From NCBI RefSeq assembly GCF_002105155.1, contig NW_019028993.1, positions 744,001 through 808,000 on the forward strand: 64,000 bases of DNA, read 5' to 3'. The position numbers and the translations under genes were made by a program. Below, piece after piece: positions 34,520 through 57,103 of this stretch (its first letter is position 1; every line of letters begins with the position of its first letter). The DNA comes from Lobosporangium transversale (Eukaryota). Under the pieces are notes generated by a model. The model made no database searches, was not told the DNA's origin, and saw only the letters and a program-made list of their open reading frames with translations.

Positions 34520-34594
34520 CAAGACATTAGGGCCTGCCAGGAGTAAAAGTAGAGCTGGTCGGCCACGGAAGTTCGATTACCGGAATGCATATTA
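34520..34594 (+). mobile_element. Fragment of a Tc1-B transposase copy, cut at a TA by Tc1-A
   Basis: Near-identical to the reverse complement of ~39736-39810. Confidence 0.8.
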
Positions 34595-35487
34595 CAGTGG
34601 TCATCAAAAGTCATTCAATGATTTTGAATTTTTAACATTCTCATTCCTTTTCTTCATTCTCATCTAGCATGTGGCTAGTATATTTGGGGTAGTGCATTTG
34701 TTCCCCAGACCTCATGATTACTTTCATGTCTCATCCCTAATTATGACTTCATTGTGAAATAAGACCAATTTCAATTTGACCTGCCTATTGAATGACTTCT
34801 GCTGAATTTCAATGTTGATTGCAAAAAAAACTTTTTCACTTCTCTTTTTTCTACCAAGGTTACCTTCAGCTATATCTTCATACACCTCTACTTACAATTA
34901 ACATTCCACATCGCTTAGTATTTATTATGAGGAGGCTTTTTATGGAAAAGGTACAAAATGCTCAGGCCTTACTTCGACAAGGGAAGTCTACAAGCGAAGT
35001 GGCAAGGCAACTTGGTATCTCTATTTCATCGGCAATAAGGATCAGGAGTGACGTCAAGGACAATATTCCTAAACCCAGAATGGGCAGACCCTCATTGGTT
35101 TCCCCTGCTACCAAGAGGGTTATTGCACGCGAGGTTGATACGGGGAAACTTAGATCCATTCTGGCAGTTCAAGAATACATCAGATCGAGCCATGGAGTGC
35201 ATGTCAGTGTAGAGACTGCCCGACGCTATGTAAAATCAGAGGGTTTGAAAAACTATGTCCGCCCATTCAAGCCTAGGCTGACAAAAATGCAGATTGCGAA
35301 AAGGAAGAATTTTGCCCTCAACCACCTTGACTGGACTGTTGATGACTGGAAGCGAGTGATGTTCTCGGACGAAAAGCTTTTTGAAAGGCTTGGGTCCTTA
35401 GGAGGAAGAACACAATATAGGCGACCCGGCCACAGGACTTTAGAAGGTCGAGATGTTAGAGAGAGATCAAGGGGAGCACATAACAAA
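34595..35487 (+). mobile_element. Tc1-A, 5' part only (truncated by Gy1)
   Basis: TA|CAGTGGTCATCAAAAGTCATTCAATG terminus; near-identical to the copy at 59872-61475. Confidence 0.9.
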
Positions 35488-35576
35488 TGTGACAGTATAT
35501 AGCCTTAAGCCTATAAAAAGGCTTGTTTTAATAATTATAATAAAATCATCTTTTGTCCCTCTTAATTATTACATGG

Positions 35577-35674
35577 CAGTGCTCCTATTCGGTTTAAAAT
35601 TTTGTCAATTATGATGTTTCAGATTAAAAAAATAAATATCACTTGACAAAATTTTAAACCGAATAGGAGCACTG
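35577..35674. mobile_element. hAT-type MITE (short form)
   Basis: TIR CAGTGCTCCTATTCGGTTTAAAATTTTGTCAA; same family as 59175-59275. Confidence 0.85.
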
Positions 35675-36036
35675 TAATAATTAAATAATACATGGTAGCA
35701 AAGCTACTCTGATCCCCGACCTTCATCCCTGTCCCTGCCCCCCTGCCCCTGGTTTCCCCGTCCCCTACCCCCTGCCCCTGGTTTCCCTGTCCCCCTGTCC
35801 CCTGCCGTACCACCCTATCCCCTCGATTTTACTTTCAACCTGCTCTCTGTGGAAGATTTAGCCCTAATCCTTGATTCCATGACGCTCACTACCGACAACC
35901 CTGTGATGACCCCCGCTTTCAAGTACCCCCAACCCGACAAGTTCGAGGGAAAGCGCGATGGCTTCTCAGCCAACACCTGGTTGCGCTCTATGCGTCGTTT
36001 CTTCGTTGGTGCCTCTGTTCCTGCTTCGGCACAGAC

Positions 36037-36822: not shown

Positions 36823-38645
36823 TGCAAAAGTCAAGGTAGTGTTCTAGGGGGATCTAAGGGTGCAATAAAGGTATCTTTATTCAGGGGGAACTATGCTACA
36901 GAACTAGATAGAAAAGTAGACCTATTTATACTAGTTAATGTCCTGTTGCAAGGAATGCTCTAGAAATATGGGCGAAATACTATGTTGCACAAAATTATTA
37001 TAGTGATTTCGCTTGCATCCTTCCCGTCATGAAGAAACCTATTATCTTGTTTTTCTTGAAGCCTCAAAGACGGCAAGCGCCTCTTTAGCGTTTGCGAGCG
37101 AAGATTTTGTTTCCCAAGTAGCTTCATCTAATGGATAGCCTTTCCAAAGAACGAGCCACTTAGGAGTTTTGCCAAACATTTTGAAGTCAATGATTTTGTC
37201 GACTTCATACTCCTCTTCTCCATCTACAAGCTCGGGGGCAGGGCGTGGTGGTGAGCGGTCGCCGAATTCACGAGGTGACTCAATATAGGGGCGAAGCAGA
37301 TCGGCATTAAAGACTGGATGTTGATGCATGTCAGGCGGTAGTTCCAGCTTGTAGGCATTTTCATTGACCTTCGAAATGATCTTGTAAGGGCCTATGTACT
37401 CAGGTTCCAGTTTCTGCGACGGCCTATTTTTATGTCCCGCGACAGAGATGTTTTCCGAGCTTAAGAGCACCATGTCACCCACAGCAAACGTAGCAGGCCT
37501 GCGAGTTTTATCCGCTTGGGCCTTTTGCCTATTCTGCGCTTCGATGATGGCATCTTGAGCTAGCGCCAAATTCATCGACTGGGTTCGAACAAAATCACTG
37601 ACAGCCGGAACATTGGTATCAGGTGGCTTTAAAAGAGATCCAGGGACTAGTGGATGGTGACCATAGTTCAGAAAGAATGGGGAGAAGCCTGTCGTAGGGT
37701 TGACAGAGTTTTGTATGCGAACTCCATCATAGGCAGTAAAAGATCCCAGTCGTTTTGCTTGTACGATATGTAAGAGCGGAGCATTTCTTCTAATGTTCTG
37801 TTGGCGCGCTCTGTTTGTCCGTCTGATTGTGGATGGAAGGCAGTAGACATGTTAAGTTTAGTGCCCATGAGCTACATCAACGTTGTCCAGAACTTGCCGG
37901 TGAAACGTGAATCTCTGTCTGACACAATTGTCCGAGGCATGCCGTGCAGTCTAAAAACATTGTCGAAAAAGAGTCGTGCAACATCAGAGGCAGTGTCGGT
38001 AGTTCGGCTAGCGCAGAAATGAACTTGCTTGGACAGTTTGTCCACAAAGACCGTGATCGCGTCAAAACCTCTGGCTGTCTTCGGAAGCTTGACAATGAAG
38101 TCCATTGTTACAGTATCCCTCGCCATGCGTGGCCAAAAATATGTTCGTCGCATGCTACTGTACGTTTTATCGAATCCCAAGTGGCCTGATATAGGAGCGT
38201 CGTGAGCGTCATGCAAGAGTTGTGAACGGAGTCCGTCGTCCTTGGGTATACAGAGGCGAGGGCCTTGTCCAGCGTTGATCCAGAGTAGACCATCCACCAC
38301 GAAGTAACGATCCGAGGTGGAGGCATCCTTATACTGATGCACGAGGGGACCTAGAATTGGATCGTGTAGGTAGCAACTGGCTAGTTGTTTTCGAATGCCA
38401 GGGTCTAGATTGATATCCAAGGAGTTCAAAGTAGTAGGTGTAGCCTCCAAGTCCTTGAGGTCCGGTCTTCGTGAAAGAGCATCAGGGACGACGTTATCTT
38501 TACCAGGTTTATACTTGAATACGAAATCATACTCTTGAAGCAACTCCATCCATCTTGCTTGTCTGCGAGTCAAGTTCGGCTGGCTAGGAAAATGTTGTAG
38601 AGTGGCATGGTCGGTATAAACGACAAAGTGAGAACCGTCAAGGTA
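36823..38645 (-). mobile_element. Gy4: decayed chromovirus 3' half (RNaseH-integrase-chromodomain, PPT, 195-bp 3' LTR at 36823-37017)
   Basis: Homologous to the pol at 53351-57103; premature stop at 37872; internal integrase deletion; PPT GACGGGAAGGA. Confidence 0.9.
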
Positions 38646-40261
38646 CAGTGGCTTCCAATATTGTCCAAGTGTTTCATTCTTCCAAAGGAAGACTATAAGT
38701 GTTCAACAGTGAGCAGCGCTTGTGCCCTTGGATCCTAGCTGGGAGCAACCTGGAAGACATACATTATTTGCTCAAAACCTATTAGCGCTCCTGCTTGTTT
38801 CTGATAGCTTTTCACTACTTTGAAATTTTCCTCTCATTTGGACAATTTTTTAACCATCGTTTTTTTTCACCTATCAAAACCTCGTATTGCCCCTTTCGCC
38901 CTTATGACTGCTAACATCCGCTCAGGCATACTTCTTATCAGATTGCGGCAGACCTCCTTCGGTGTCTCCTCCTCCCATATCTGGCTCACTCTTTCCCAGA
39001 GTTCCAGCATGCCTTCTGGAATGGTCCCATGTTCGCGAATTTTTTTTTTTTAAATGATCCCACAAATGCTCAATAGGGTTTAGGTCTGGTGAATTGGCAG
39101 GCCATGTCAGTATTCTACCTGACGCTCTTGTCAATCCAATAGAGGCAAGGTAGGTTGTGACTCTCTTAGCCGTATGCTTAGAATCATTGTCTTGTTGGAA
39201 GATAAATTGCTCTGGATCAATGTTGTACCAATCCACAGTATTCAATAACTCGTCCTGGAGGATACGAATATACAGCTCGGAGTCCGGCGTGGAGTCGATC
39301 TTGGCCAAGTAGCCTGGCCCATCCCACGTCATGCAGCCCCAAACCATGATCGAACCACCACCATGTTTGACTGTGGGCGAAACTAACTTTGGGTCAATAT
39401 CGGCCGCCTTCACCTTTGGTTCTTTATTTGTTTCCACCCAAACATAGCGCATGCCATCAGAAGATATCCTACAAATTTTGGACTCATCGGACCAAATTAC
39501 TCGCTTCCAATCAGCTTCAGTCCAGTCTTTGTGCTGGAGAGCAAAGTCCAGTCGAGCTTTCTTTTGACGTTTTGTTAACCTAGGCTTCTTGACGGCTTTT
39601 TTAGTTTCCATGCCTATATCTCTCAGCGCCCGACGCACCGTATTAGCTGACACCGGATCTTCGTTCTCATCGTTATAGAGTCTGGTAGCATCGACAGCTG
39701 ATGAGACTACACCACGGTGAAGCAACAATCGAATATAATATGCATTCCGGTAATCGAACTTCCGTGGCCGACCAGCTTTGCTTTTACTCCTGGCAGGCCC
39801 TAATGTCTTGGAGATATTATGGACTGAGGACTTGGATATGCCTACTTCTGTGGCAACCTGACGGATGGACTTGTGCTGCTCGAGTAAATGGAGAGCATCC
39901 TCAACAACGGAAGCTTTGATTGGCTTCATCTTTGGAGTGTTTAGAAAGAGCAACGTAGGCTCCTAGAAGAGTGTAGGTGAAGAGTATCTACTCAAGTGTG
40001 TGGGAGATAATTTGAAAAAAATTCAGCAAAGGTGCGTAAAATAAGTGATGGTTATATAATTGTCCAAATGAGATTAAATACTTTTGTCAATGAAAAACCA
40101 TGGTGAATGAGACTAGAGATATTTTAAACTGAACCAGTCCACGTATCATTGGCATACTTGTTTACTCTGATAAAAATAAAAGTGCAAGCAACCATCGCTA
40201 TTATTCTAATCAAGACGGAAAACATGAGCGTGGAACATTTGGACAAATTTGGAAGCCACTG
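38646..40261 (-). mobile_element. Tc1-B transposon; transposase 39929-38874 with a +1 frameshift in an A12 run
   Basis: TIR CAGTGGCTTCCAA..TTGTCCAA, TA flanks; WSDESK, FQQDND and SPDLNPIE motifs. Confidence 0.92.
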
Positions 40262-41526
40262 TATCTTAAGAAGATGAAAGTTAAACACCGGCTCACCTCC
40301 GCGTATCACCCGCGCACAAATGGCAAAACCGAACGCACTAATGGCATCCTCGGCGCCGCATTAACAAAATACGTCGGTGATAAGATGAAGCACAAGTGGG
40401 ACCTCTTTCTAGATCAGGCACTTTTCGCCTGCCGCACCAGAATACATAGCGTATCTAAGAAGTCACCATTCTACCTAGTCTATGGAATCGAGCCCACGAT
40501 ACCTGGCGACCTCACTCGTCCTTATGTACATATTCGATGGAGCGGTTTTTACAGAGGTTCAAGCCGCGAGAGAGGCCGAGCTTGAAAGATTGAGACTTGA
40601 GAGGCTATCAAACGAGGAGCGGCAACAGGCAGCCGCAAGGCTCATGGAGGAAAGGTATAATGAGAGACATGACATCGACTCCGAAGCTCCGAGGCAAGTG
40701 TACGAGATTGGCCACTGGGTTTTAGTAAAAAACATAGCGAAAAGGAAATTTGAATACCCTTGGTATGGACCATTGCGTGTCGAGACGATTACCCCTTTTG
40801 GCGCTTACAAGCTTATCTGGCCCGATGGAAAAGCGAAAATGGACCTTGTGCATAAAGACCGTCTGAAACCGGTGAATCTACCGGCGGGTAGTCCAGAACC
40901 GACGCGCGCATGGTATAAAACCCGCAACAGTCGCGATGAACTCACCATCCCCATGGAGACCATTCAAGAAGAAGACGAGCGAGGACCTCAGTCGGAGCCA
41001 GAAGTAGGTACAGCAGTGCAACCCATACCCCTCGAAGGTTCATCGCGTACAACGGCCCCATCATCATCAGCAAGGCCCGCAGCTACCGCATCGCCCCCTC
41101 CTGCGCGACCACCACGTTCCCTCTCAAGGCCCAATCCAAAGATTGACGCCGCAGGGGCGGCTTGGATTTCTCGTGGGGAGTCTGTCCTAAATCGAGGCAA
41201 CTTAAGCTCACGTCCTATAACAAGTGACGTCATGGTAGGTAGGACCAGAGGTATACCTATAGTGGTACCCTCAAACCCACCCCGCCCTGCCTGGACGTGA
41301 GCTCAGCCACCCGATCCTCCCCGCTATAATAAATAGTGGACTCTCCGTCCCTGAAGTGTTCCTTACCTTTATCTTGGTACAACACTTCAGGTATGCAACC
41401 TCATTCATCTCAGCACTAGTTACTTGTATAGTATTATATGTATCATAAACTAATAAAGACCTTTATCTTGGTACAACACTTCAGTGTGTTCTATGTATTT
41501 GCGTCTTGCTGCGGTTTTTAAGGGCA
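40262..41526 (+). mobile_element. Gy3: Gypsy 3' remnant (integrase end, PPT, 344-bp 3' LTR at 41183-41526)
   Basis: TSAYHPRTNGKTER integrase motif, frameshifted; C-terminus resembles Gy2; LTR TGTCCTAAA...TTTAAGGGCA. Confidence 0.85.
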
Positions 41527-41982
41527 TCTCAGTATAACCCCCGGTTCTTAAGACAGTGATTTTTTCACACAAATGTCGTAGAGCATCTACTAGTGATCTC
41601 TGGAAACTAGTAGGTAATGATGAAAAATGAAGAATTGGGCAAGAGCCTCGTGGTTTTGGGATACGATAGTGATCCTAAGTAATGCTTTGAATGATTTTGA
41701 GGATGCTGCAAAAGGGCATCGATAATAAGAAGAGAGATGCCGTTTTTGCAGTGAAGGAAAAAGCTACTTAAATACTATTTAAAAATGGTAGTAAATAGGA
41801 TGATAGGAAATAAATAAATTGAAAGGAAATACATATTTAGGTAAATGAATAGGCGTCATTTACGACACCCCTCCATTCGGATTGGCACTACTCCTGGAGT
41901 GCCTGGATAAACGCCGTAGCTCTCTCAGATAAATCTCAGCAGCATTTGCTGGAGGAATGATAGGAGAAGGAGGAGCTACAGC

Positions 41983-42292
41983 CAGTGCTCCTATTCGATT
42001 CGAACGGATCGAGTTCGAATAGCTTCGAATAAGCCATATCCTGGTTCGATTCGAATGGTTCGAATGGTTCGAATGGTTCGAATAGGACCACTGGTTACGC
42101 GTAGTGAAAGTATGATCCTTGTACTTTACACCCAATCAAAAAAAAAAAAAAAAAAAAAAAAAAGTTTAAAATTATCATTTACTATTGTTCCAATAGTTCG
42201 AATAAATCGAAGGCTCGAATCATTCGAACCATTCGAATAGCATTCGAATTTTGTTATCTAATCGAATTCGAATGGTTCGAATAGGAGCACTG
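41983..42292. mobile_element. hAT-type MITE (long form) in the Gy2 pol 3' end
   Basis: TIR CAGTGCTCCTATTCGA, 8-bp TSD GCTACAGC, many TTCGAA motifs. Confidence 0.92.
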
Positions 42293-45200
42293 GCTACAGC
42301 ATCACGATCAGCGATGAACTGCTCTTGAGCTACACGTTGTCGTGCAGCATCTTGAATTTGTGCCGTTACTGGATCAAGTTCAATGGGTGATCCGTCCATG
42401 GAATTATCCATAGAAAATTCATCAGAAGCGCTTTTTGGTCTATACCAAGGCGCCTTAGGCAACTCATTATTGACTAGAACAGCCTTCTTCAATCTATCTT
42501 GATGGACTAAGTCAGCTTTTATCGTACCGTCAGGCCATGCAAGCTGAAAGGTATGTAGAGGCGTTGCTCGAACAATACGTAGGGGACCATAAAAACTTTG
42601 ATCAAATTTCTTCTTAGCGAAGTGCTTCACAAGGACGGCGTCACCTGGAAGAAATTTATTTTCGTCGATTTCATTCTGCTTGTCATAGGTAGAAGCCATA
42701 AGACCTGCTGCTTTCTGTTGTAGACCATGTGCTTTGCGACGTATTTCATCAATCTGATCAAACTGTTGTTGTCTGTAAGCTGAGTAATCATCTTCCGTTA
42801 TGAAGTCGAATAAATGAGGGTGAGAAGTATCTCCAGGGATAACTGGATCTAGACCATAAACCAGTTTAAAAGGTGACACTTTAGTGATAGAGTGTATACG
42901 AACTCGACATGCGAATAAGGCTTGTAAAATGTATCTGTCCCAAGCTGTACGATGATTTCCGACAAACTTGTTAATCATTGTGCCTAATAAGCCGTTAAAT
43001 CGTTCGCACTTTCCGCTGGCTCGGGGATGGTATGCAGATGTTAGTTGATGGTTCGTACCCATCCGATTCATATATCGCTGTAAGGTCGCTGCCGTGAAAT
43101 TTGATCCACGGTCTGTGACAATTTCAGATGGACATCCAAACTGCATAAAAATTTCCTCATAAATAAAGTCAGCAACTGCCGATGCAGTCGCTTCATGCAC
43201 AGCACGGGCTAAGGGCCAGTTGGTAGCATAATCAATTGCGGTGATAATCCAACGATTGCCATTCTTGGTTTTCGGTAGGGCTCCTATGAAGTCCATTCCC
43301 CAGCGCTGAAAGGGCAAGGTAGGCTCTAGAGGATGTAGAGGTGCAACAGTGGCATCTTGACGGGCTAACAGCTGACATTCAGGACAAGCTGAGACCATTG
43401 TTATAATATCAGCACGAAGGGTTGGCCACCATACACGAGTTGAAACCAGATCGAATAAGCCGTTTCGGCCAAGATGACCAAAGCCAGCATGATACATATA
43501 TAGAGTATCAGCTCGATTGACGAAAGGAACAAATGGGACTGGGCCGTGTTCTGTTATACGACACAAAGTATCGTGATCGACTTGGAAATGAATTGCTTCA
43601 TCTCTTACTAGTTTAGCAGATTCATCATCTTCAGGTAAGGATCCATCCTTGAAATAGGCATAGATGTATAAAGGCCAGTCAACATTATCAGCGGCAAAGT
43701 CTTTTATAGATGAAGTAGTTGCAAGAGAGGCAACTGTTGGTGTAGATAAACGAGACAAAGCATCTGCGGCTGAGTTATCGACACCTCGACGATATTGAAT
43801 ATCAAGATTGTAGGGCGCCAAAAATTCAATCCATCTGGCCATACGACCGCTCAGATGAGGTTGATTAAATAAAAAGCGTAGGCTAGCGTGATCAGTGAAG
43901 ACGGTTACTACTGATCCTAAGAGGTAAGAGCGCCATGCTCCACATGCTCGGACTATGGCCAATAGTTCCTTTTCATGGACTGGAAAATTTTTCTCAGAAT
44001 TAGAGAGCTTGTGTGACACAAAAGCAACCGGGTGAAGACGGTTATCGATCATTTGTGAAAGAACTGCTCCTGTAGCAATGTCAGAGGCATCAGTTTCCAC
44101 AAAAAATGGCTTAGAAAAGTCTCCGGGGTAAAGAACTGGTGTTGAGGTAAGCAATTGAATCAACTTGTCCATGGCTGCTTGATGGCTAGGAGTCCATTGT
44201 GGTAAAGGTCTCTTTTTGGCATTGTTTTGTCCTTCTTGCTTTAATAAATCAGTCAAGGGGCTTGCAATCTTGGCGAAGTTGCGTATAAATCGCCTGTAGT
44301 AATTTGTGAAGCCTAAGAATGAGCGTAATTCTTGAACATTGGATGGAGTGGGCCAATCTTTAAGGACTGCAACCTTGTCTGGATCGACTTCAATACCTCG
44401 AGAGGATATGACATGACCCAAGAATTTGACTTCAGATACACCAAAGGTACACTTGCTGGGCTTTGCGTGAAGGGAAGCCGATTTCAAAGCTTCTAGAACC
44501 AGCTTGAGATGTTGAACATGCTCTTTCATAGAAGAAGAGAAAATAAGGATGTCGTCTAAAAAGACAACAACGAACTTGTCCAAGAATTCCTTTAAGACAT
44601 CATTGGTTAAAGTCTGGCATGTAGCAGGTCCTCCTGTGAGACCAAAAGGCATGACTACGTATTCGAAATGGCCATATCTTGTATTGAAAGCAGTTTTTGG
44701 AATGTCTGCAGGGTGAATACGCACTTGATTAAAAGCACTTTCTAAGTCTAGCTTGGAGAAAACAGTAGCACCAGTAAATCGATCGAAAAATTCTTCGATC
44801 AAGGGAAGTGGGTACCTATTCTTGATTGTGATTGAGTTCAAAGCTCTATAATCAATACACAGCCGGAGGGAACCATCGCTCTTGGTCACGAATAGAACAG
44901 GGGATGCCCACGGGGAAATGGAAGGTCTGATAAAGCCTTTCTTAAGTAAATCATCAAGTTGTTGCTTTAAAACTAACAACTCTTTTGGGGACATCTTGTA
45001 GGCTCGCTTATAGATCGGGCGTGCGTCTACTGTATCAATGTGATGATCTTGAGGTCTCTGTGGTGGTAGAGTCGACAATGGAGTGAAGACAGAATTTTCA
45101 TATTCGTATAAAAGCTTCTGTAGTGTAGGATCAATATTGTTGTCTTTAATAACTTCCGCTAACGAAAGAGCAGAAATTTTCGGAGTCGATTGTTCATCTT

Positions 45201-46818
45201 GAAGAAAAACCAAACCCAGGTCTTGTTGATTTGACACAGCACGCTGGATGGCTCGATGAGTACACAACGAATCCATTTGAGGTTCCGAAGAAAGAACCTT
45301 TGGGGATGAGTCTTTGGAAGAAGCCTTGTATGATGCTCCATTCACAGTCCAAGTCAAAGTTCCTTGAACATAATCAGTATTTGGATTATACTTCTTTAAC
45401 CAAACCAGGCCAAGGTAAATGTCTTGACTTAGGATATCAGCCACGCAAAATTCCTCGTCATGAGTAAAGTTGCCGATAGTAAATACGAGAGTGACTAAGC
45501 TTGTCAACTTTACGTTACTAAGATTGGCTGTAGTGGCGATTGTTGGCCGATTGAGTTTTGTTTCTTTTTTTATGAGCGAAGGATCATATGCGCGGATCCT
45601 GTTAAGCGCTGTTGTAGAGATCGCGTTGCAATTGCATCCGCCGTCGATAAGGGCAATCAGCTCAGTTGAGCCGACGTTCGTTTTGATGAAGATCTGTTCA
45701 GGCAACATTTTGATGTGATCTTCTAGTGGTGCTGATTTATCTGTCATTGTAGTAGGCTCAACGGTATGAGCTTGTAATTGATTAACATGGGCAGATTTGT
45801 CAGGCTTATTATCAGGCTTTGTAGGGCAAGCGTACCCTTTGTGATCTGTCTTGCCACAGATATAGCATGACCGGGGACCATTGCCACCGTTTTTGTAGCA
45901 TTGTACCTCAGAATGGCCGTGCCTGCCACAAGTAGGACAAGGTGGACGTCTTGTTCTGAGGGAATCTATGTCCATAGTAGATTCCGCAACATGGTCATGG
46001 TCTTGATGACGGTCTTGATGACGGTCTTGGTGTTGTTGTGAATTATTTTGATGAGAATTGTTTTGATGAGAGTTATTTCGATGATAAGTGGTATGTGAGG
46101 TTGAATGTCTGACAAAGTCATTATTTTTGTAAGATGCTTGATGTGGAGGAGGAGTATGAGGTTTGTCATTGGATCTTGATGCCTTGTCTAAGAGTCTCTT
46201 TGCGTCCCAGTTATGAGATTCTGTGCGACAAACATCTAGGACTTCATTCCAGGTCGTGGCGTTCTCTTTCTGAAGCTTGCGCTGGAGCCATAAATCTGCG
46301 ACTCGACGGAAGTTCCATACTTTTTCTCCTTCGGGAATTTTATCACGAAGTGGATAGTATGCTGCCTCGAACTCACGGACGAATTCCATAACATCTGAGT
46401 TCGGTTTCATGGATAAATTGTCGTACTTGTAACGTAGCTCGAACTCATCATCCGCCTTGGCAAATTGTTCCTTAAAATCTTGAGCGAATTTTTTCCAAGT
46501 GAGGATATTCTTAGTCTCAAGATCGTCAATGTGTCTAAGACTCCAATCACGTGCGATCTTTTCCATATGTAGAGCAACACGAACTGTAAAGAAGTTATCA
46601 TTGACGTTGGAAATTTTGTACAAAGCGTCCATAGCGCGTAACCAGGATGAAACATCCGTCTTGCTATCGAATCGTTCAATTCCTGCAAGATTAAAATGCT
46701 GATTGGTTGTAGTTTCCATATTTACATCACCATCGGTGTCAAGAAAGGAATTGGAGGATGTGGTCGTGGTAGAGGAGCTTGCGGTGCTTTGAACGTTGAT
46801 ATTGGATGGGGGTTTCAT
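42220..46818 (-). CDS. Gy2 single-ORF Gag-Pol (2 CCHC knuckles, PR, RT, RNaseH, IN); original stop at 41860 before the MITE insertion
   Basis: CPTC..H..C and CYIC..H..C; LIDGG; LCIDYRALN; FLDD; ETDAS; HHCC and DDE integrase. Confidence 0.95.
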   Translation of the reverse strand: MKPPSNINVQSTASSSTTTTSSNSFLDTDGDVNMETTTNQHFNLAGIERFDSKTDVSSWLRAMDALYKISNVNDNFFTVRVALHMEKIARDWSLRHIDDLETKNILTWKKFAQDFKEQFAKADDEFELRYKYDNLSMKPNSDVMEFVREFEAAYYPLRDKIPEGEKVWNFRRVADLWLQRKLQKENATTWNEVLDVCRTESHNWDAKRLLDKASRSNDKPHTPPPHQASYKNNDFVRHSTSHTTYHRNNSHQNNSHQNNSQQHQDRHQDRHQDHDHVAESTMDIDSLRTRRPPCPTCGRHGHSEVQCYKNGGNGPRSCYICGKTDHKGYACPTKPDNKPDKSAHVNQLQAHTVEPTTMTDKSAPLEDHIKMLPEQIFIKTNVGSTELIALIDGGCNCNAISTTALNRIRAYDPSLIKKETKLNRPTIATTANLSNVKLTSLVTLVFTIGNFTHDEEFCVADILSQDIYLGLVWLKKYNPNTDYVQGTLTWTVNGASYKASSKDSSPKVLSSEPQMDSLCTHRAIQRAVSNQQDLGLVFLQDEQSTPKISALSLAEVIKDNNIDPTLQKLLYEYENSVFTPLSTLPPQRPQDHHIDTVDARPIYKRAYKMSPKELLVLKQQLDDLLKKGFIRPSISPWASPVLFVTKSDGSLRLCIDYRALNSITIKNRYPLPLIEEFFDRFTGATVFSKLDLESAFNQVRIHPADIPKTAFNTRYGHFEYVVMPFGLTGGPATCQTLTNDVLKEFLDKFVVVFLDDILIFSSSMKEHVQHLKLVLEALKSASLHAKPSKCTFGVSEVKFLGHVISSRGIEVDPDKVAVLKDWPTPSNVQELRSFLGFTNYYRRFIRNFAKIASPLTDLLKQEGQNNAKKRPLPQWTPSHQAAMDKLIQLLTSTPVLYPGDFSKPFFVETDASDIATGAVLSQMIDNRLHPVAFVSHKLSNSEKNFPVHEKELLAIVRACGAWRSYLLGSVVTVFTDHASLRFLFNQPHLSGRMARWIEFLAPYNLDIQYRRGVDNSAADALSRLSTPTVASLATTSSIKDFAADNVDWPLYIYAYFKDGSLPEDDESAKLVRDEAIHFQVDHDTLCRITEHGPVPFVPFVNRADTLYMYHAGFGHLGRNGLFDLVSTRVWWPTLRADIITMVSACPECQLLARQDATVAPLHPLEPTLPFQRWGMDFIGALPKTKNGNRWIITAIDYATNWPLARAVHEATASAVADFIYEEIFMQFGCPSEIVTDRGSNFTAATLQRYMNRMGTNHQLTSAYHPRASGKCERFNGLLGTMINKFVGNHRTAWDRYILQALFACRVRIHSITKVSPFKLVYGLDPVIPGDTSHPHLFDFITEDDYSAYRQQQFDQIDEIRRKAHGLQQKAAGLMASTYDKQNEIDENKFLPGDAVLVKHFAKKKFDQSFYGPLRIVRATPLHTFQLAWPDGTIKADLVHQDRLKKAVLVNNELPKAPWYRPKSASDEFSMDNSMDGSPIELDPVTAQIQDAARQRVAQEQFIADRDAVASAPIRTIRIRLDNKIRMLFEWFE

Positions 46819-46946
46819 TGTTGATAAATAAAAGGTCTTTGTTTGAAAAAAAGGGCAAATAAGGGGATGAATAAATAAAAATGTGTGTAAACAAGTAAAA
46901 AGGTAACAAATAAGGAAAGAGATAAATGAAACGGAAAAAGAAAGCT

Positions 46947-46986
<40 letters not shown>

Positions 46987-47564
46987 ATATGCGCGAAAAA
47001 TAAAAGTGTGTGGTGAAGGTAAAGAATTTGGTTGAGGAAAAGCAAAAAGTTTGTAATATGATCACAACAAAAGGATGAATATGTACAATCAAAAAGTGTC
47101 AAGAAGAATAATAATGGAGTAGTAACTAGGTCGCGTTAGAGGTTAAAAGAACCTTTGCTACCATTTGTCGTAGAGCATCTACTAGTGATCTCTGGAAACT
47201 AGTAGGTAATGATGAAAAATGAAGAATTGGGCAAGAGCCTCGTGGTTTTGGGATACGATAGTGATCCTAAGTAATGCTTTGAATGATTTTGAGGATGCTG
47301 CAAAAGGGCATCGATAATAAGAAGAGAGATCTTTAATAACTGCTAATTTTCTGAGAATTCATAATGAGAATAATGAAGATAAACTCACCTGCAAAAGGGC
47401 ATCGATAATAAGAAGAGAGATGCCGTTTTTGCAGTGAAGGAAAAAGCTACTTAAATACTATTTAAAAATGGTAGAAAATAGGATGATAGGAAATAAATAA
47501 ATTAAAAGGAAATACATATTTAGGTAAATGAATAGGCGTCATTTACGACAACATAAGCAATGTT

Positions 47565-48381: not shown

Positions 48382-48576
48382 TGCAAAAGTCAAGGTAGTG
48401 TTCTAGGGGGATCTAAGGGTGCAATAAAGGTATCTTTATTCAGGGGGAACTATGCTACAGAACTAGATAGAAAAGTAGACCTATTTATACTAGTTAATGT
48501 CCTGTTGCAAGGAATGCTCTAGAAATATGGGCGAAATACTATGTTGCACAAAATTATTATAGTGATTTCGCTTGCA
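48382..48576 (-). mobile_element. Solo LTR of the Gy4 family
   Basis: Appears identical to 36823-37017; no matching TSD. Confidence 0.9.
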
Positions 48577-48813: not shown

Positions 48814-49479
48814 CAGTGCTCCTATTCGATTCGAACGGTTCGATTCGAATGGTTCGAATGACGCGAATTATTCGAGTAGTGCGAGTGTCGAATGACGCGA
48901 ATTATTCGAGTAGTTCGAGTGTCGAATGACGCGAATTATTCGAGTAGTTCGAGTGTCGAATGACGCGAATTATTCGAGTAGTTCGAGTGTCGAATGACGC
49001 GAATTATTCGAGTAGTTCGAATGTCGAATGACGCGAATTATTCGAGTAGTTCGAGTGTCGAATGGTTTGTCACGAACAGCAAGCAATGTCTAGCTCATGA
49101 ATTGATGAATGACTTTTGTCTGATTCGAATCTGAAAAAGATCACGTGTGCTTGATTAATTTGTTCCGCTCATTTCCTTCACTCATTCCTCCATGCATAGT
49201 TTGCCTGTCAAGCCAAGTCGCGTCTCTTAGTTTTCTAGCTCCGTGAATAGCTCCAAGGATTCTAGAAGAGCTATAAACCAATAACCAAGACTTATAGTGC
49301 CAAGGAACCTTGAAATAAGATTGCACCAGATATCTTCCTCGGATCCTGTGTATTAAGTTAACTCAACACTTGGAGTTCCGCATATGGTAAAAGTCCTTAG
49401 GAAATATTTGAGTAAGCTTTATTTAGAATTCTTGAAGCGCGTCTCCGCTTCAGTCAAACAAGTATAAATATGATAGATT
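48814..49479. mobile_element. hAT-family element left end with subterminal tandem array
   Basis: Starts CAGTGCTCCTATTCGATTCGAACGG like 41983; right TIR not found. Confidence 0.7.
48854..49057. repeat. 34-bp tandem repeat x6 (TCGAATGACGCGAATTATTCGAGTAGTTCGAGTG)
   Basis: Contiguous units with no spacers. Confidence 0.95.
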
Positions 49480-50039
49480 TGTAACATAGTAAACCTCAGT
49501 CTGCAATAAAACTATTCTTGAATCTCCTAAGTTCATTCTTGTTCCTAAATCACTTACCTTCTCTTGCAATCGTCCTGTCAGTCCTTGACAGCGTCTCTAT
49601 TTATATGTTATTCATGGGCTATGCTTATCAGTGAGTCATAGGGCTGTACCTATCGATGACTCATGGGCTATGCTTATCGATGGGCTATGTTTATCAATGA
49701 GTCAAAGGCTATGCTTATCAATGAGTCATAGGCTATGCTTATCATTGAGTCATAGGCTATGCTTTCACATGCTACACTATCATGCAAAACTGATTCAATA
49801 ATTCATTCCCATGTGCATTTCTTTTTTTCATTCCTAGAAACCGTATATGCATACACCACTCATACTTTGGTTTAATAAAGCTCCCGTCTTCTTCTACGTC
49901 ATAGTGATGCGTTGTGACATTAGCTTGTCTCATTTGAATAGCTAATGACTTTTTTGTTCATGCAGGTCATTGAATCAGTTTCACATGTGCCCATTCGGTG
50001 GCCAAAGATCTTTATTCTTTTGTGAGGCATAACCTTACA

Positions 50040-51071
50040 TCAATAGATAGTATTCCAACCATGGGCATCACTGACAGCTTGGAGTCTCTTATGGATACCT
50101 ATGATGAGTTTGCGGCAGAAGTCCACTGGGATCCTGTACCATTCAACCGATATTCGCTCCCATAGTTCATCACAGCTCTTAGCTCGCTCCGGATACCTAG
50201 AGAGCCGCCTATCCAATTCTGCCCACATGTGTTCAATAGGGTTGAGGTCAGGGGATTGTGCTGGCCACTCTAGAAGTGTACCTTCCTCTTCTGTCAGATG
50301 TACTGACTCCAAATACTTCCTAACAATCTTCGCCGTGTGCTTCGAGTCATTGTCGTGCTGAAAGACGATATCGCTTTTAGTTAGGCCCCAGTCATCAAGC
50401 GACATCTGTAGATCCTCCTGCAGTAGTTTGATGTAAAGTTGTGCGTCCATATTATTGTCAATCTTTGCAATGTATCCAGGTCCGTACCATGAGAAGCATG
50501 ACCACACTTTAACATTACCACCCCCAAACTTGACAGTGCCTTGCACCGAACTGCGAGTGAGGCGTCCCGGATTGTCGCCCCAGATCCACTGCACGCCATC
50601 AGAGCAGATTCGGTTTATTTTCGATTCATCTGACCAAATAACCTTTTTCCAATCTTCCAGAGTCCATTCCTTATACTTATTGATAAAATGCAAACGAGCT
50701 TTAATATGTCGTCGACGTAAAGCTGGCTTATGTACACGCCTCTTTGCTGTCAATCCTAACTCCTTGAGCCGTCGTCTAACGGTGGTCTCAGAAACAGCCG
50801 CTGGTATGAGCTGGTTGGCTCTAACGGTGGCCTCAACTGCAGACTTGAGTGTACCTCGTTTCATGTTCACCTTAAGATACTGCATGATACCTCTAGGTAC
50901 TTTCCTTGGTCGACCGCCTTTATTGACTGGCATGTACTCCTTATTATGTGCATAGATCCTGGTGGCCGTCGCTATTGATATACCAACACTAGCAGCAGTT
51001 TCTCTAGTAGACATGCCTCCCATCATTAACCTCCTGGCTTCGTTGACTTTCCTTTGTGGAGTGGGTCTCAT
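50040..51071 (-). CDS. Tc1-C transposase (intact ORF)
   Basis: GRPRK, WSDESK, FQHDND, SPDLNPIE. Confidence 0.92.
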   Translation of the reverse strand: MRPTPQRKVNEARRLMMGGMSTRETAASVGISIATATRIYAHNKEYMPVNKGGRPRKVPRGIMQYLKVNMKRGTLKSAVEATVRANQLIPAAVSETTVRRRLKELGLTAKRRVHKPALRRRHIKARLHFINKYKEWTLEDWKKVIWSDESKINRICSDGVQWIWGDNPGRLTRSSVQGTVKFGGGNVKVWSCFSWYGPGYIAKIDNNMDAQLYIKLLQEDLQMSLDDWGLTKSDIVFQHDNDSKHTAKIVRKYLESVHLTEEEGTLLEWPAQSPDLNPIEHMWAELDRRLSRYPERAKSCDELWERISVEWYRIPVDFCRKLIIGIHKRLQAVSDAHGWNTIY

Positions 51072-52316
51072 ATTCTGTGAAGGTATAGTTAAGAGAGAGT
51101 TAAGCAAGTGTTCATAAAGGAAAGAGAGAAAAGACCTTTTATACTTGCATTAAATGACGTCCAAAAGTTGTCATGGGCAACATTTTAGACCACATGTGAA
51201 ACTGATTCAATGACCTGCATGAACAAAAAAGTCATTAGCTATTCAAATGAGACAAGCTAATGTCACAACGCATCACTATGACGTAGAAGAAGACGGGAGC
51301 TTTATTAAACCAAAGTATGAGTGGTGTATGCATATACGGTTTCTAGGAATGAAAAAAAGAAATGCACATGGGAATGAATTATTGAATCAGTGTTTTTAAT
51401 TGTTTTCGCCATTTTAAAAAATGGATTCGCTATTTTCAATTTGAGTTTCTCCAAAGAAACACAAGATTTATCCAATTTAAGCTAATATGTAAAATTATCC
51501 CACAAGTTATCCGAATGTGTCTAAAATATTATCAAGTTCTCCAAACTGATAACCGAACCGATTATTAGAATTATCCAAACATCATGTCTTTATTAGCAAG
51601 ATAGGCGACCAATTTGAGTAACTTTACATACATATTATCCTAAATATTAGCGTTTTTTTTTTTTTTTTTTTCACTGAACTCTCACAGACCTAGAGATTAT
51701 ATTCTCTGTTGAGAGACCTTGGGAAGAAGGTGGTTGCATGACGAATCCAACTTTGACAATCCTTCCGAGATATGGACTTGAATGCGTCCTGAAACCTAGA
51801 GCGCATGGTCTCACCAGCCTCAAGGCGGCTCTTCTTGAACGTGTTCTTAACTTTTGACCAGCATTCTTCAATCGGATTCAAGAACGGTGAGTATGGGGGT
51901 AGATATTCACAAAAATGCCCTGCTTCTTCTATGAGGTCCCTGACTAGCGGTGCAAACGTGTTATACAATACTGACTCAAACCTTTGAGGAGGGCTCAACT
52001 ATCACGCGCACCCCAGGCGCCAAGACGCCAAGCCCAAGTGCCAAGACACCAAGCCCCAACCCTATCAATTATCAGTATAAATAGTCCACTACGTTATAGC
52101 CAAATAAAGTATCCTTTGACCTTCGATTCCACCTAAGATCACCTTTGATTGTTACTATTTACATGGTAGCAAAGGTTCATCGAACCACCGACCCCGCCAG
52201 AAACCGCTTATATTTCCCTCTGATATTTTTCCCTAGATCCCTCTGATATTTTCCTAGATAAAATTTAAAAATTTACCCCTGCATTTGATTTTTTTTTTTT
52301 TTTTTTTTTTTTTGCC

Positions 52317-53288
52317 ATGGACAACCTCACCACTTCCTTGAAAGCTCTTAACCTTGATGCCAGTACCAGCCTATCCGTGCAGAACGCTGTGCAAACCTTC
52401 CTCGAATCCCGACAGGATAGTGCTTCTAGCGCTGCCGCCTTTAATGACCATGTCCGCACGGTGGCTGCTGTGATAAAACCTACCAAACCAGAACCATACG
52501 AGGGAAATGTCGACGCTGTCGCGGTCCTCAACTTCTTGGAGAACCAAGAAGAGTACTTCGAGATCATGGAGCTTAACCACTCCCGTTGGGTCCGATATAC
52601 CGTTGTCAACCTGAAAGGAGACGCCAAGGCATGGTGGCGAGACTCGGAAATGACAATTGATACACCATGGGACACTTTCCGAAGTAAATTCATCGAAAAC
52701 TTCACACCCCCTGACACGGCTTCTTCAGCCCAGAAAGCACTGGTTCAATTAAAACAAGGTAAATCCTCAGTAGCGGAATACACTGCCAAATTCCGCCGCC
52801 TCCAACGCCTCACACCCAAACTGGAGGAATCATGGCTTGTCCTCCATTATACCTACGGCCTTGTAGAAGACACAAGCAAGGAAGTCCTCCTTCGCCAGCC
52901 TCAGACTCTCAACCAGGCCATCAAGCAGGCTACGATGATCCACAGCATTTTACATTCCTCTAGACCCCCCATCATGACAAGCCAAACAAGCCAACCCACA
53001 CCGACCCCGATGGACCTAGACGCAATGCAGATGATGTTCAATAACTTCCTACTACAGAGTACAAACTCCACAGGCTTAGCGAACTTCCATCGCCCCCCCT
53101 CGACTAACAACAGACCACTCTCCAAGCTCACCGAAAATGACAGAACAAAACTGCGCCGCGCAGGCGCTTGCTTTCGCTGCAGAAAGAAGGGACACATGGC
53201 CAAGAACTGCCGCGTGACTAGGAACTTGAACAACCTGGAACAACAAGACGACTACGACGACTCGGGAAAAGAGGAGAGCGAGCTGTAG
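52317..53288 (+). CDS. Gy5 Gag
   Basis: AKAWW, LKQG..SVAEY, PTPMDLD, CFRCRKKGHMAKNC. Confidence 0.93.
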   Translation: MDNLTTSLKALNLDASTSLSVQNAVQTFLESRQDSASSAAAFNDHVRTVAAVIKPTKPEPYEGNVDAVAVLNFLENQEEYFEIMELNHSRWVRYTVVNLKGDAKAWWRDSEMTIDTPWDTFRSKFIENFTPPDTASSAQKALVQLKQGKSSVAEYTAKFRRLQRLTPKLEESWLVLHYTYGLVEDTSKEVLLRQPQTLNQAIKQATMIHSILHSSRPPIMTSQTSQPTPTPMDLDAMQMMFNNFLLQSTNSTGLANFHRPPSTNNRPLSKLTENDRTKLRRAGACFRCRKKGHMAKNCRVTRNLNNLEQQDDYDDSGKEESEL

Positions 53289-56200: not shown

Positions 56201-57103
56201 CTCCATGGCATGCCACGAGCTATTGTATCGGACAGAGACTCAAGATTCACGGGACACTTCTGGACCACATTGATGAAGCTCATGGGAACTAAACTCCATA
56301 TGTCTACAGCATTCCATCCTCAGACAGACGGACAGACGGAGCGAGCCAACAGGACCCTGGAGGAAATGCTACGATCTTATGTCTCGTACAAACAGAATGA
56401 CTGGGACTTGCTCTTACCAATGATGGAATTTGCATACAACAACTCCGTCAACCCCTCCACAGGGTTTTCCCCCTTTTTCCTAAACCACGGTCATCATCCC
56501 ATTGTCCCATCATCCCTCTTGAAACCACCAACAACAGATGTACCGGCTATCTCTACCTTCATTTCCACTCAAGCCTCTGCGTTGGCGCAAGCACAAGACG
56601 CAATAGCGACAGCTCAGGACATCCAAAAACGCCAAGCAGATAAAGCACGATCACCCGCCAGGTTCACTGTAGGCGATAGTGTCTTACTGAGTACGGAGCA
56701 TATCACTGTCGCAGCTCACGCAAACCGACCCTCCAAAAAGTTAGAACCAAAATTCATTGGACCATTCAAAATCATAGAGAAGATCAACGACAACGCGTAC
56801 AAGCTCGAGCTACCTCCGAACATGAAACAACACCCTGTCTTCAATACAGATTTATTACGACATTATCACGAATCCCCGGAGAATTTCGGCGAACGAGCAC
56901 CTGCCAGACCCCCACCAGATTTAGTCGATGGCGAAGAAGAATATGAAGTGGAAAAGATTCTGGATTACAAACTATTTGGCAGAACCCCCAAGTGGCTCGT
57001 GAAATGGAAGGGATATCCTGACGAAGAAGCAACATGGGAACGGAGATCCTCACTAGTTAATGCAAAAGAAGCACTGGAGGAATTTCAAAAAATGCAACAG
57101 TAA
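53264..57103 (+). CDS. Gy5 Pol (PR-RT-RH-IN-chromodomain), entered by -1 frameshift
   Basis: LIDGGA, MCVDYRGLN, YLDD, ETDAS, HHCC/DDE, GPF, EEYEVEKI..WLVKWKGY..EATWE. Confidence 0.95.
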   Translation, partial: GKRGERAVDQASLALTTNPRVLGSRGRSHMDLSSNNSNKNSSSPKSMIMPSRSSPIFSLSSLLSLPSKSTLHHTTSIPPDSLNHLSPDSHPASSVTEIKSSSNQDTNENSPTPSTSHEHLASKPPRRRRRHATHLQSLSAVYTNARRLLTFIGAVNGHPARILIDGGAEGNVLSSKFCRKHNIIIDNANPIPIIHPNGTAVMSPGTASVTLERGSYGEKIQSIIYPSKKYDLILGKPWLTAVNPQINWRTNDLHFEHDGKHILWECRGHTSSSARQNCLSAINFAALALEPETTTFLAQVRTTSPPTNLDSTLPESIQQIVQVEFPDLFPDTLPDGLPQDRGDSMRIETENNTDPPVRPVIRLSIAELDELKTQLTELLRKGFISPSTSPYGAPVLFVKKKDGGLRMCVDYRGLNKITRKNRHPLPRIDELIDRFRTARFFTKLDLLSGYHQMRVHPDDRHKTAFRTRYGHYEFNVVPFGLTNAPAAFSAMMRNVLDPVLDKCTVVYLDDILIYSDNKEQHLQDIRNVLRLLRKAGLFCKLSKCSFMQEETEFLGHVISKDGLKTNGALVKAVREWPTPTTQRHVMQFLGLTNFYHQYIDHYADIALPLTDLLGSTTTFYWSKPHQEAFERLKQAVTMAPVLRIFDPALATSVETDASGFAIGAVLFQTDHKGESRPVAFTSRKLSSAERNYPTHEQELLAVVHALRTWRYYLDGSHFIVYTDHATLQHFPTQPNLTRRQARWMELLQEYDFNFKYKPGKDNIVPDALSRRPDHKAQDPASEQINSIEISLDPGLRQRLIKCYPYDLKLGSLYESCREASPSDRYFVADDLLWINIAGQTRLCIPNDPNIRALLLHDAHDSPIAGHLGFEKTYETMRRTFFWPRMARDTKTYIASCEQCQRNKPLLHHPAGLFKPLDIPLERWETVTMDFIGPLPKTNRGFNAITVFVDKLSKQVHFCPSHTTDTASDIARLFFNNVFRLHGMPRAIVSDRDSRFTGHFWTTLMKLMGTKLHMSTAFHPQTDGQTERANRTLEEMLRSYVSYKQNDWDLLLPMMEFAYNNSVNPSTGFSPFFLNHGHHPIVPSSLLKPPTTDVPAISTFISTQASALAQAQDAIATAQDIQKRQADKARSPARFTVGDSVLLSTEHITVAAHANRPSKKLEPKFIGPFKIIEKINDNAYKLELPPNMKQHPVFNTDLLRHYHESPENFGERAPARPPPDLVDGEEEYEVEKILDYKLFGRTPKWLVKWKGYPDEEATWERRSSLVNAKEALEEFQKMQQ

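Follow-up and report, generated by a model that had tools for sequence, protein, structure and literature searches.

Two Ty3 retrotransposons of a Mortierellaceae fungus carry an intron-like LTR segment that encloses a poly(A) hexamer and ends in a copy of the preceding repeat

Reverse transcription of a spliced RNA should strip a retroelement of its introns. In the foamy virus LTR, as described in excerpts of PMC3694450, a splice donor lies upstream of the poly(A) signal, U1 suppresses the 5' site, and a few U3 bases refold the 3' RNA and lessen access to the donor; a stretch of 13 U3 nt can change the fold of R, conceal the donor and allow polyadenylation at the 3' LTR. In the same excerpts, the RSV, MMTV and HTLV-1 LTRs carry the hexamer ahead of a short 3'-terminal R, while in HIV-1 a hairpin and a U1 site govern poly(A) choice between identical LTRs. 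The HTLV-1 LTR also contains splice sites, with no exon copy mentioned in excerpts of bioRxiv 2023.01.28.526022. Penelope-like elements have a spliced 5'-UTR intron near the start, in the pseudo-LTR, that survives retrotransposition (excerpts of PMC2377424 and PMC8557442), and long reads have revealed canonical introns within the LTRs of maize LTR retrotransposons, which the authors claim as the first such evidence (PMC13192763, a 2026 preprint, in excerpt). In intron gain by tandem genomic duplication, the 3' end of the intron copies the upstream exon (PMC3443670, in excerpt).

Against this background we analyzed a window of 64 kb from a Mortierellaceae genome; all coordinates are relative to the window start. 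The window contains two non-chromoviral Ty3 elements, Gy3 and Gy2, next to a tRNA-Met gene, with the following features read from the sequence:

40262..40949, + strand, Gy3 integrase remnant, 5'-truncated and frameshifted, belonging with Gy2 to one non-chromoviral Ty3 clade, 41-44% identity to the Gy2 integrase
41173..41180, + strand, Gy3 polypurine tract, directly upstream of the Gy3 LTR
41183..41567, + strand, Gy3 3' LTR, 385 bp, TG...CA, with the intron-like segment; a contig from run X4 continues past 41567 into a primer-binding site
41574..41867, - strand, Gy2 3' LTR, 294 bp, with one repeat copy at 41706-41738, the 91-nt segment exactly missing and no AWTAAA
41868..41878, - strand, Gy2 polypurine tract
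41975..42292, + strand, MITE with an 8-bp target duplication, inside the end of the Gy2 ORF; joint 41974>42293 in runs X1, X2, X4 and X7
42220..46818, - strand, Gy2 gag-pol as a single ORF: gag, RT, RNase H and integrase, no chromodomain
47152..47163, - strand, Gy2 primer-binding site (TGGTAGCAAAGG), common to the chromovirus at 51951-58334
47166..47550, - strand, Gy2 5' LTR, 385 bp, with the intron-like segment
47564..47638, + strand, tRNA-Met(CAT) gene, called by ARAGORN, 13 bp from the Gy2 5' LTR

Gy2 has the gag, RT-RH-IN order, TG...CA LTRs, primer-binding site and polypurine tract of Ty3/gypsy (Metaviridae) elements. Among these hallmarks Gy3 has only the integrase end, the polypurine tract and the LTR, which is an orphan 3' LTR behind the integrase remnant. 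We rejected an assignment of Gy2 to the chromoviruses: it has no chromodomain, and its clade is separate from that of Gy1, the chromovirus of the window, and the metagenome locus L019 (100/100 support). No SH3_Tf2-1 or Chromo match was found in the Gy2 ORF end before the MITE interruption. A Ylt1-like fungal Ty3 clade (Yarrowia Ylt1) is named in excerpts of PMC3248453. Contigs of other runs carry other letters upstream of 40262 and a 4-nt difference at 40527 in the Gy3 remnant, and the MITE is missing from those of four runs. The Gy3 LTR with its segment is bridged by contigs of X2, X4 and X7, the X2 contig spanning 41183-41473 with one other letter, and is therefore not an assembly product of the window.

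We infer that the tRNA-Met gene was the integration target of both elements. Elements of the tRNA-gene-targeting Ty3 type have most copies 10-20 bp upstream of Pol III genes; here the distance of 13 bp comes from this one locus, and in other runs, LTR-to-LTR junctions lie 4-6 nt apart. Yeast Ty3 and Dictyostelium DGLT-A insert about 15 bp upstream of tRNA genes and lack a chromodomain, although they belong to other hosts and no LTR intron is mentioned in the excerpts of PMC5006619.

Both segment-bearing LTRs have the same order of parts, namely a TATA-like box, repeat 1 (26 or 33 bp), GT, AWTAAAG and repeat 2 ending in CAG:

41328..41336, + strand, Gy3 TATA-like box (AATAAATAG), 37 nt before repeat 1
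41346..41364, + strand, Gy3 hairpin 5' arm, pairing with repeat 1 and the first intron bases, putatively in U3
41365..41390, + strand, Gy3 repeat 1, 26 bp, putative first exon, with the predicted start site at its first base
41391..41484, + strand, Gy3 intron-like segment, 94 nt, CAG/GTATGC...CTAAT...TTCAG
41452..41457, + strand, Gy3 AATAAA, ending 1 nt before repeat 2
41459..41484, + strand, Gy3 repeat 2, 26-bp exact copy of repeat 1, putative 3' R region
47450..47457, - strand, Gy2 TATA-like box (TATTTAAG), 36 nt ahead of repeat 1, with another candidate box 9 nt upstream of it
47422..47438, - strand, Gy2 hairpin 5' arm, pairing with repeat 1 and intron bases +1 to +5
47389..47421, - strand, Gy2 repeat 1, 33 bp, putative first exon
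47298..47388, - strand, Gy2 intron-like segment, 91 nt, CAG/GTGAGT...TTTTGCAG
47332..47337, - strand, Gy2 ATTAAA, the sole AWTAAA in the Gy2 LTR, ending 1 nt before repeat 2
47298..47330, - strand, Gy2 repeat 2, 33 bp, exact match to repeat 1

The repeats, GT..AG ends and hexamers had been located in a preliminary description of this DNA, and all of these positions proved correct on rechecking. Its remark that the two LTRs lack obvious similarity also held, the longest shared alignment being at most 11 bp. Apart from a 34-bp tandem array, the two repeat pairs are the only exact direct repeats of at least 25 bp spaced 30-600 bp apart in these 64 kb, and not one of 5000 shuffled LTRs held even a 16-bp repeat. 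AWTAAAG stands directly before repeat 2 in both families (2/2); the word occurs 53 times in 128,000 positions and is present in all 4 LTR families of the window. The Gy3 TATA-like box shares its motif, TATAAATAG, with the two chromoviral LTR families of the window; in Gy1 this box lies 34 nt ahead of the end of AATAAAG. The chromovirus LTR of the window at 48382-48576 has a more HIV-like appearance.

As a host reference we used 20 introns obtained by spliced alignment of MSH4 and SCY1. The segments of 94 nt (Gy3) and 91 nt (Gy2) fall within the host range (75-128 nt in 20/20). Their donors score 10.0 and 7.5 and are host-like (host, -0.5 to 9.2), and the acceptors, CAG in both, score 3.2 and 3.0 (host, -2.2 to 9.1). 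Gy3 has the branch word CTAAT at -31, while Gy2 has only CTTAT and no YTRAY, a word found in 11 of the 20 host introns. Equally good combined donor and acceptor points occur at 3 and 4 of 60,960 positions, counted in the repeat-rich half with the test sites included. The copy of the upstream exon at the intron end spans 0-2 nt in host introns versus 26 nt (Gy3) and 33 nt (Gy2). Each segment is likely a spliceosomal intron that would be removed at the RNA 5' end.

Folding bore out the hairpins that had been proposed for both LTRs, with z of -7.5 (Gy3) and -5.2 (Gy2) and 0/200 shuffles reaching either. Upstream of repeat 1, an arm of 15 nt base-pairs across the donor, engaging intron bases that are absent from repeat 2. 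With U3 present, the donor is unpaired at 0.19 (Gy3) and 0.03 (Gy2), versus 0.47 and 0.32 with shuffled U3 (2/200 each), and no shuffled U3 (0/200) matched the hairpin energy. When the RNA starts at repeat 1, the hairpin is lost (z 0.39 and -1.03), with the Gy2 donor still partly paired without U3 (0.37).

Sequence and folding thus give both LTRs a donor upstream of the hexamer and a U3-dependent masking of that donor, as in foamy viruses. However, the foamy virus signal lies in one long R, with acceptors outside the LTR, no duplication and no intron to rebuild (PMC3694450, in excerpt). A single continuous R holding donor and hexamer was considered for Gy2 and Gy3 and rejected: the repeat is duplicated, and under our model only the repeat can be R. 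The AWTAAAG before repeat 2 recalls the RSV-type LTR, whose hexamer lies upstream of the start and is never transcribed at the 5' LTR, whereas that of Gy2 and Gy3 would lie downstream of the start and be spliced out. In HIV-1 the donor is downstream of the LTR and the hairpin hides the hexamer, while here it hides the donor (excerpts of PMC3694450 for both comparisons). Penelope-like elements are not LTR elements, show no exon copy at the intron end and have a retention mechanism stated as unknown (PMC2377424 and PMC8557442, in excerpt). The maize LTR introns are long (mean 1.3 kb) and belong to non-coding RNAs, and strand transfer, exon copy and rebuilding go unmentioned in the excerpts of PMC13192763. 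In tandem-duplication gain the whole intron is duplicated exon (PMC3443670, in excerpt), whereas Gy2 and Gy3 duplicate just the exon end and have 58-68 nt of unique sequence; we rejected this origin, since the intron 5' part does not copy the downstream exon. Our literature search turned up no account of the exon-copy layout itself; single parts of it are shared by foamy virus, RSV, Penelope and maize LTR introns.

The segment, or the layout, recurs with variations in other copies. In an X7 variant the 3' part of the segment differs, still ending in a CTGAT-like word and AATAA, and a diverged Gy2 relative (X1, X2, X4) has the segment in a 3' LTR, repeat 1 being covered over its last 8 nt only. 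Among 80 metagenome Ty3 loci, three (L019, with two copies; L021; L027) have an LTR of the form repeat/GT..repeat-AG, but none of these layout LTRs contains AWTAAA, and their repeats end in AAG. All three are chromoviruses in an integrase clade separate from Gy2. The two repeats of each element are identical over 21-37 nt, and they change together: between the two L019 copies both differ at the same 1/30 columns (unique part, 7/79), and between L019 and L021 at the same 7/31 (unique part, 33/85). Among 47 exact repeats in these metagenome loci, 5 end in sense AG/GT, 4 of them layout repeats, and 0 in antisense. Donor masking in this chromovirus family is non-significant (43, 153 and 43/200), with two hairpins significant (3 and 4/200). 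The layout was found in 0/5 loci of the Gy2 clade from other hosts (L104-L108, with LTR sequence visible in about 3) and 0/12 viral-collection Ty3 loci. Since the three chromoviruses have the layout without the hexamer, poly(A) suppression cannot be its sole role.

Taken jointly, these features make it fairly probable, in our judgment, that transcription starts at repeat 1, the 5' copy is spliced, the 3' donor is hidden, cleavage falls in repeat 2 and strand transfer rebuilds the intron. The core of this idea, a spliceable segment with an internal hexamer and a transfer to repeat 2, was already in the preliminary description and fits the host-like length and donors, the location of the sole Gy2 AWTAAA in the segment and the co-changing repeats. 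Its proposed start near the beginning of the hairpin is unlikely, since strong-stop DNA made from such a start would fit repeat 1 more closely than repeat 2, at the cost of the intron. We favor a start at repeat 1 because the TATA spacing fits (36-37 nt) and the hairpin would become a switch confined to the 3' LTR. Transcription would begin at the first base of repeat 1, giving a 5' transcript without the hairpin 5' arm. The cap-proximal donor would be free, the segment and its AWTAAA would be spliced out, and the RNA would begin exon 1-U5-PBS. RNA of the 3' LTR would include U3, whose last 15 nt would pair over the repeat 1 end and the donor, so that the segment is kept, AWTAAA is read and cleavage follows 10-30 nt on, inside repeat 2. 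Minus-strand strong-stop DNA would end in the complement of exon 1 and anneal to the part of repeat 2 that remains at the RNA 3' end. R would be short, as in RSV, both new LTRs would read U3-repeat1-intron-repeat2-U5, and repeat 2 would be recopied from repeat 1 each cycle.

The Gy2 3' LTR (41867-41574) differs from its 5' LTR by the exact absence of the 91 nt and at only 2 other positions, and the loss takes away every AWTAAA. This segment-less LTR went unmentioned in the preliminary description. One normal cycle cannot yield such a difference between the two LTRs of one element, which counts against the proposed mechanism. Since the segment has been lost there, either rebuilding is fallible or this copy changed once it had been inserted. 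The intron-less, hexamer-less LTR seen at the Gy2 3' end would result from a jump to repeat 1 or from a deletion between the repeats.

An unspliced, RSV-like LTR would start at repeat 2, with the hexamer in U3, repeat 1 a frozen duplicate from one aberrant transfer and the donor at most binding U1. It would account for the middling acceptors and for the fact that the segment-removed joints, 41390>41485 or 47388>47297, are not listed in four contig sets, whose contigs are not recorded as RNA. Gy1 has an RSV-like arrangement, with AATAAAG 27-34 nt behind the same TATA-like box, and Gy3 has TATTATAT 27 nt before repeat 2. Gy2, however, has no TATA-like word before repeat 2, and both elements place TATA-like boxes 36-37 nt before repeat 1. 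Top-range donors sit exactly at the end of repeat 1, segment lengths are host-modal, and the chromovirus-family repeats are identical and co-changing where a frozen U3 duplicate would drift; we regard this reading as unlikely. We put slightly less weight still on a real self-rebuilding intron that mainly serves expression (splicing-coupled export, translation, or evasion of the silencing that meets intron-less RNA), the hexamer being incidental or secondary. AWTAAA lies inside 2 of the 20 host introns and is missing from L019, L021 and L027, and a reporter deprived of the Penelope leader intron gave no protein at an undiminished RNA level (PMC2377424, in excerpt). The fixed AWTAAAG register at repeat 2 in both families, kept in the X7 variant, and the lack of any other hexamer in the Gy2 LTR speak against it. 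An expression role and the proposed mechanism are not mutually exclusive.

It is improbable that the layout is an accident, whether a short insertion flanked by a long target duplication, an intron-gain-type tandem duplication or an assembly artefact, with splice-like ends by chance, and for Gy3 this is largely refuted. Gy2 itself has an LTR without the segment, and the product of deletion between direct repeats is indistinguishable from that of splicing. But the segment 5' parts are unlike the U5 start, contrary to an AGGT tandem duplication (model in excerpts of PMC3443670), two independent repeats end on the rare donor/acceptor points counted above, the donor is covered by a complementary arm, and three other runs have contigs that bridge the segment, which is also present in a diverged relative. 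Splicing at the AAG just before repeat 2, with a doubled first exon, is hardly credible: these sites score 3.3 (Gy3) and 4.7 (Gy2), comparable to the CAG acceptors, and AAG acceptors occur in 2 of the 20 host introns, yet the resulting introns of 68 and 58 nt would be shorter than the shortest host intron (75 nt), and a doubled exon would give a third repeat copy on transfer, of which none is seen.

The layout offers a concrete, testable way for a spliced LTR element to keep its intron, and the same parts would settle the choice between 5' and 3' poly(A) sites. If true, it would be a fourth solution to the problem of two identical LTRs and a general route to splicing with intron retention; U3-R-U5 would be redrawn for elements of the Gy2/Gy3 type, and exact intron-less LTR variants would be explained. 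Whether a split R, with an intron after exon 1 that ends in its copy, genomic RNA spliced at the 5' end and polyadenylated within the retained 3' intron, an anti-donor hairpin in U3 in control of this, and regeneration by first-strand transfer in each cycle, evolved repeatedly in LTR retrotransposons of intron-rich eukaryotes we hold to be an even call. With short LTRs, canonical signals, a natural intron-less variant and a culturable fungal group, these elements are a convenient test case, and they would suggest a compact retro-vector design for fungi that need an intron for expression.

The left half of the window holds host genes, among them MSH4, whose protein shares 73-77% identity with Mortierellaceae proteins and no more than 63% with others among the matches listed, so that the host is probably a Mortierellaceae fungus. 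The right half, a nest of transposons, has the following features.

41183-41567, plus strand: Gy3, an orphan 3' LTR after an integrase remnant (segment 41391-41484, 94 nt)
41574-41867, minus strand: 3' LTR of Gy2
47166-47550, minus strand: 5' LTR of Gy2 (segment 47298-47388, 91 nt)
51951-52163 and 58122-58334: LTR family of the chromovirus Gy1, AATAAAG 27 nt behind the TATA box, RSV-like, without the layout
48382-48576 and 36823-37017: second chromovirus LTR family, AATAAAG within a short hairpin, HIV-like, without the layout
34593-35487, 38922-39962, 49786-51394, 58310-59170 and 60124-61477: Tc1/mariner-type DDE elements, nested in one another and in a chromovirus
41975-42292: TTCGAA-rich MITE with an 8-bp target duplication, in the ORF end of the Gy2 copy, its termini similar to those at 35576-35675 and 59174-59276
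48820-49091: 34-bp tandem array

Gy2 is a full-length Ty3 element on the minus strand with a single gag-pol ORF and no chromodomain. Its closest named integrases among the matches listed are from Entomortierella (55%), Calcarisporiella and Mucorales, and the integrase end of Gy3 is 41-44% identical to that of Gy2.

The layout common to the Gy3 and Gy2 LTRs (repeat 1, a GT donor, AWTAAAG and an exact repeat 2 ending in CAG) is confirmed. Repeats, segments and hexamers all lie where the preliminary description had placed them, its claim that the two LTRs lack obvious sequence similarity holds, since they cannot be aligned outside the layout, and the hairpins that it proposed in both outdo 200/200 shuffles in folding. 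Apart from the 26-bp (Gy3) and 33-bp (Gy2) pairs, the whole window has no isolated exact repeat of at least 25 bp at 30-600 bp spacing. The Gy3 repeat can also be read as AG|GT in antisense, a reading rejected for its poor donor.

As a reference, 20 host introns were derived by spliced alignment of MSH4 and SCY1 to homologues, two or three boundaries of which may be off. These introns span 75-128 nt, against 94 and 91 nt for the LTR segments, and the upstream exon end is repeated over 0-2 nt. The LTR donors score 10.0 (Gy3) and 7.5 (Gy2), at or over the top of the host range (-0.5 to 9.2), and the acceptors 3.2 and 3.0, in the lower middle of theirs (-2.2 to 9.1). Positions this good as donor and acceptor at once number 3 and 4 of 60,960, test sites included. 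The Gy2 segment contains no YTRAY branch word. Splicing might instead use an AAG acceptor just before repeat 2, which scores as well as the CAG site; the resulting introns, however, would be shorter than all 20 host introns, and we consider this reading very improbable. In the host set itself, one donor appears to be GC and two acceptors AAG (5108-5188, 4343-4438 and 8053-8157).

AWTAAA also lies within 2 of the 20 host introns, so that its mere presence in the LTR segments says little and its register is what counts. AWTAAAG stands directly before repeat 2 in both families, against a background of 53 per 128,000 positions. The Gy2 5' LTR has a single AWTAAA, within the segment, and the intron-less Gy2 LTR has none. 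AATAAAG is present in the window's two chromoviral LTR families too, which supports taking it for the probable poly(A) signal of these LTRs. One window thus holds three candidate poly(A) solutions: the Gy2/Gy3 layout, an RSV-like LTR and an HIV-like LTR.

Under the standard model of reverse transcription, the 3' end of strong-stop DNA must match repeat 2 to be extended there, so the predicted start of element RNA is the first nucleotide of repeat 1. If transcription started at the hairpin base, strong-stop DNA would fit repeat 1 better than repeat 2 and the intron would be dropped. Repeat 1 is preceded by a TATA-like box at 37 nt (Gy3) and 36 nt (Gy2), and each of the two repeats starts at a pyrimidine|A step; Gy1 has the same box 34 nt ahead of the end of AATAAAG. 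With a start at repeat 1, the hairpin 5' arm would belong to U3 and so be present in 3'-LTR RNA only. Caps favor the nearest splice donor. Folded with U3, the donor is unpaired at 0.19 (Gy3) and 0.03 (Gy2), compared with 0.47 and 0.32 for shuffled U3 (2/200 each); folded without U3, the hairpin disappears. Among the arm's pairing partners are intron bases +1 to +5, which follow repeat 1 only. The folding agrees with the arm acting as a 3'-LTR-only element that would mask the donor, and foamy virus uses 13 U3 bases in a comparable way (PMC3694450).

Taken together, the sequence makes it rather probable that the 5' leader is spliced, which would remove the segment from the 5' end of element RNA, that U3 gates retention of the segment and polyadenylation there in the 3' LTR, and that strand transfer would land on repeat 2. 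The preliminary description had proposed a 5' signal that is spliced out and rebuilt by transfer to repeat 2; that interpretation is supported in part and refined here. Among the alternatives, an RSV-like, unspliced LTR with a frozen duplicate is a possibility of distinctly lower probability, and a real self-rebuilding intron serving mainly expression is slightly less likely still. Accident or artefact appears unlikely, as in three other sequencing runs (X2, X4 and X7) contigs continue from repeat 1 into the Gy3 segment. A full-text literature search, with most subscription journals, supplements and Repbase-type records outside its scope, turned up no account of LTR introns whose end copies the first exon. 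A 2026 maize preprint presents LTR introns as new in themselves and leaves strand transfer unmentioned (PMC13192763).

Those contigs come from a comparison of region 40200-47560 in 4 of 8 runs (X1, X2, X4, X7), all of them contigs. In X1, X2 and X4 a 3' LTR of a diverged single-copy Gy2 relative contains the segment with 10 substitutions and 5 gap letters, although only 8 nt of its repeat 1 were covered. Among the joints of the compared contigs (four runs, none on record as RNA) no splice joint was found. One X7 contig matches the intron-less Gy2 form with zero mismatches (41574-41766) and reaches just 28 nt past the repeat. Contig depth in X7 differs about tenfold between U5 and U3/intron (525.6 vs 50.7 in Gy3, 136 vs 12 in Gy2), while X2 and X4 are near 1:1 for Gy3. 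This pattern is suggestive, being what spliced RNA would give, but that X7 is RNA is a guess and we do not count it as evidence, because parts cannot be ranked by contig depth, 31-letter words are too short to phase a 33-bp repeat, and the intron-less form exists as DNA. Another X7 contig joins unrelated sequence at 41458, exactly 1 nt before repeat 2, as captured strong-stop cDNA might; this was likewise not counted. In an X7 contig the 3' part of the Gy3 segment differs, yet still ends in AATAA.

A metagenome scan with general RT patterns kept 80 of 576 loci, mostly chromoviruses, with no close Gy2/Gy3 relatives among them. The preliminary description looked to related LTRs for the repeats, splice sites and hexamer together; repeat|GT..repeat-AG, 99-113 nt within the LTR, occurs in 3 of these 80 Ty3 loci, all without AWTAAA.

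L019, 348-494 and 7037-7185: two copies, GC-rich chromovirus
L021, 2144-2281: one copy, GC-rich chromovirus
L027, 1-120: one copy, GC-rich chromovirus

These eukaryotic elements form a family with many relatives at 72-93% protein identity; they have AAG acceptors, and donor masking is not significant. Within each, repeat 1 equals repeat 2; between elements the two copies change jointly and more slowly than the unique part, the pattern that recopying of repeat 2 from repeat 1 would be expected to leave. The L019 chromovirus and Gy2 fall on opposite sides of a 100/100 branch, in a tree that omits L021 as too short and whose two labelled rows cannot tell how often the layout arose. An AG|GT match in locus L026 was ruled out, as it sits in a tandem array. 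None of 5 Gy2-clade loci from other hosts and none of 12 Ty3 loci from the viral collection had the layout; many of these loci are partial, so that the counts are not rates. The former (L104-L108) are eukaryotic Gy2-clade Ty3 elements on small contigs in bacterial MAG records, apparently binning contamination. Viral scans with the Gy2 integrase and L019 pol gave no relatives, further ones gave 11 weak bacterial-type integrases, and the sole match of a viral motif search was an unrelated coding region. The prokaryote-genome scan that yielded the stray contigs L104-L108 gave otherwise weak matches.

A tRNA-Met gene lies 13 bp from the Gy2 5' LTR (gap 47551-47563), and 6 bp (41568-41573) separate the other end of Gy2 from the Gy3 LTR; LTR-to-LTR junctions of a few bases also occur in contigs of other runs. 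Such bunching beside a tRNA gene is as expected of elements inserting repeatedly upstream of tRNA genes, and suggests that the non-chromoviral Gy2/Gy3 clade has inserted more than once at a tRNA target, comparable to the tRNA-upstream insertion of DGLT-A and Ty3 (PMC5006619).

Relative to its 5' partner, the Gy2 3' LTR is missing precisely the 91-nt segment and differs at two other positions. The copy's flanks match at 4 of 5 bases, and at position 41792 the 5'-LTR base is present in every compared contig of X1, X2 and X4. Splicing followed by reverse transcription, deletion between the repeats and assembly collapse would all give an identical product. In this copy, whose ORF end also holds the MITE, the intron-less 3' LTR is most simply a change after insertion; progeny of such an LTR are predicted to lack a poly(A) signal.
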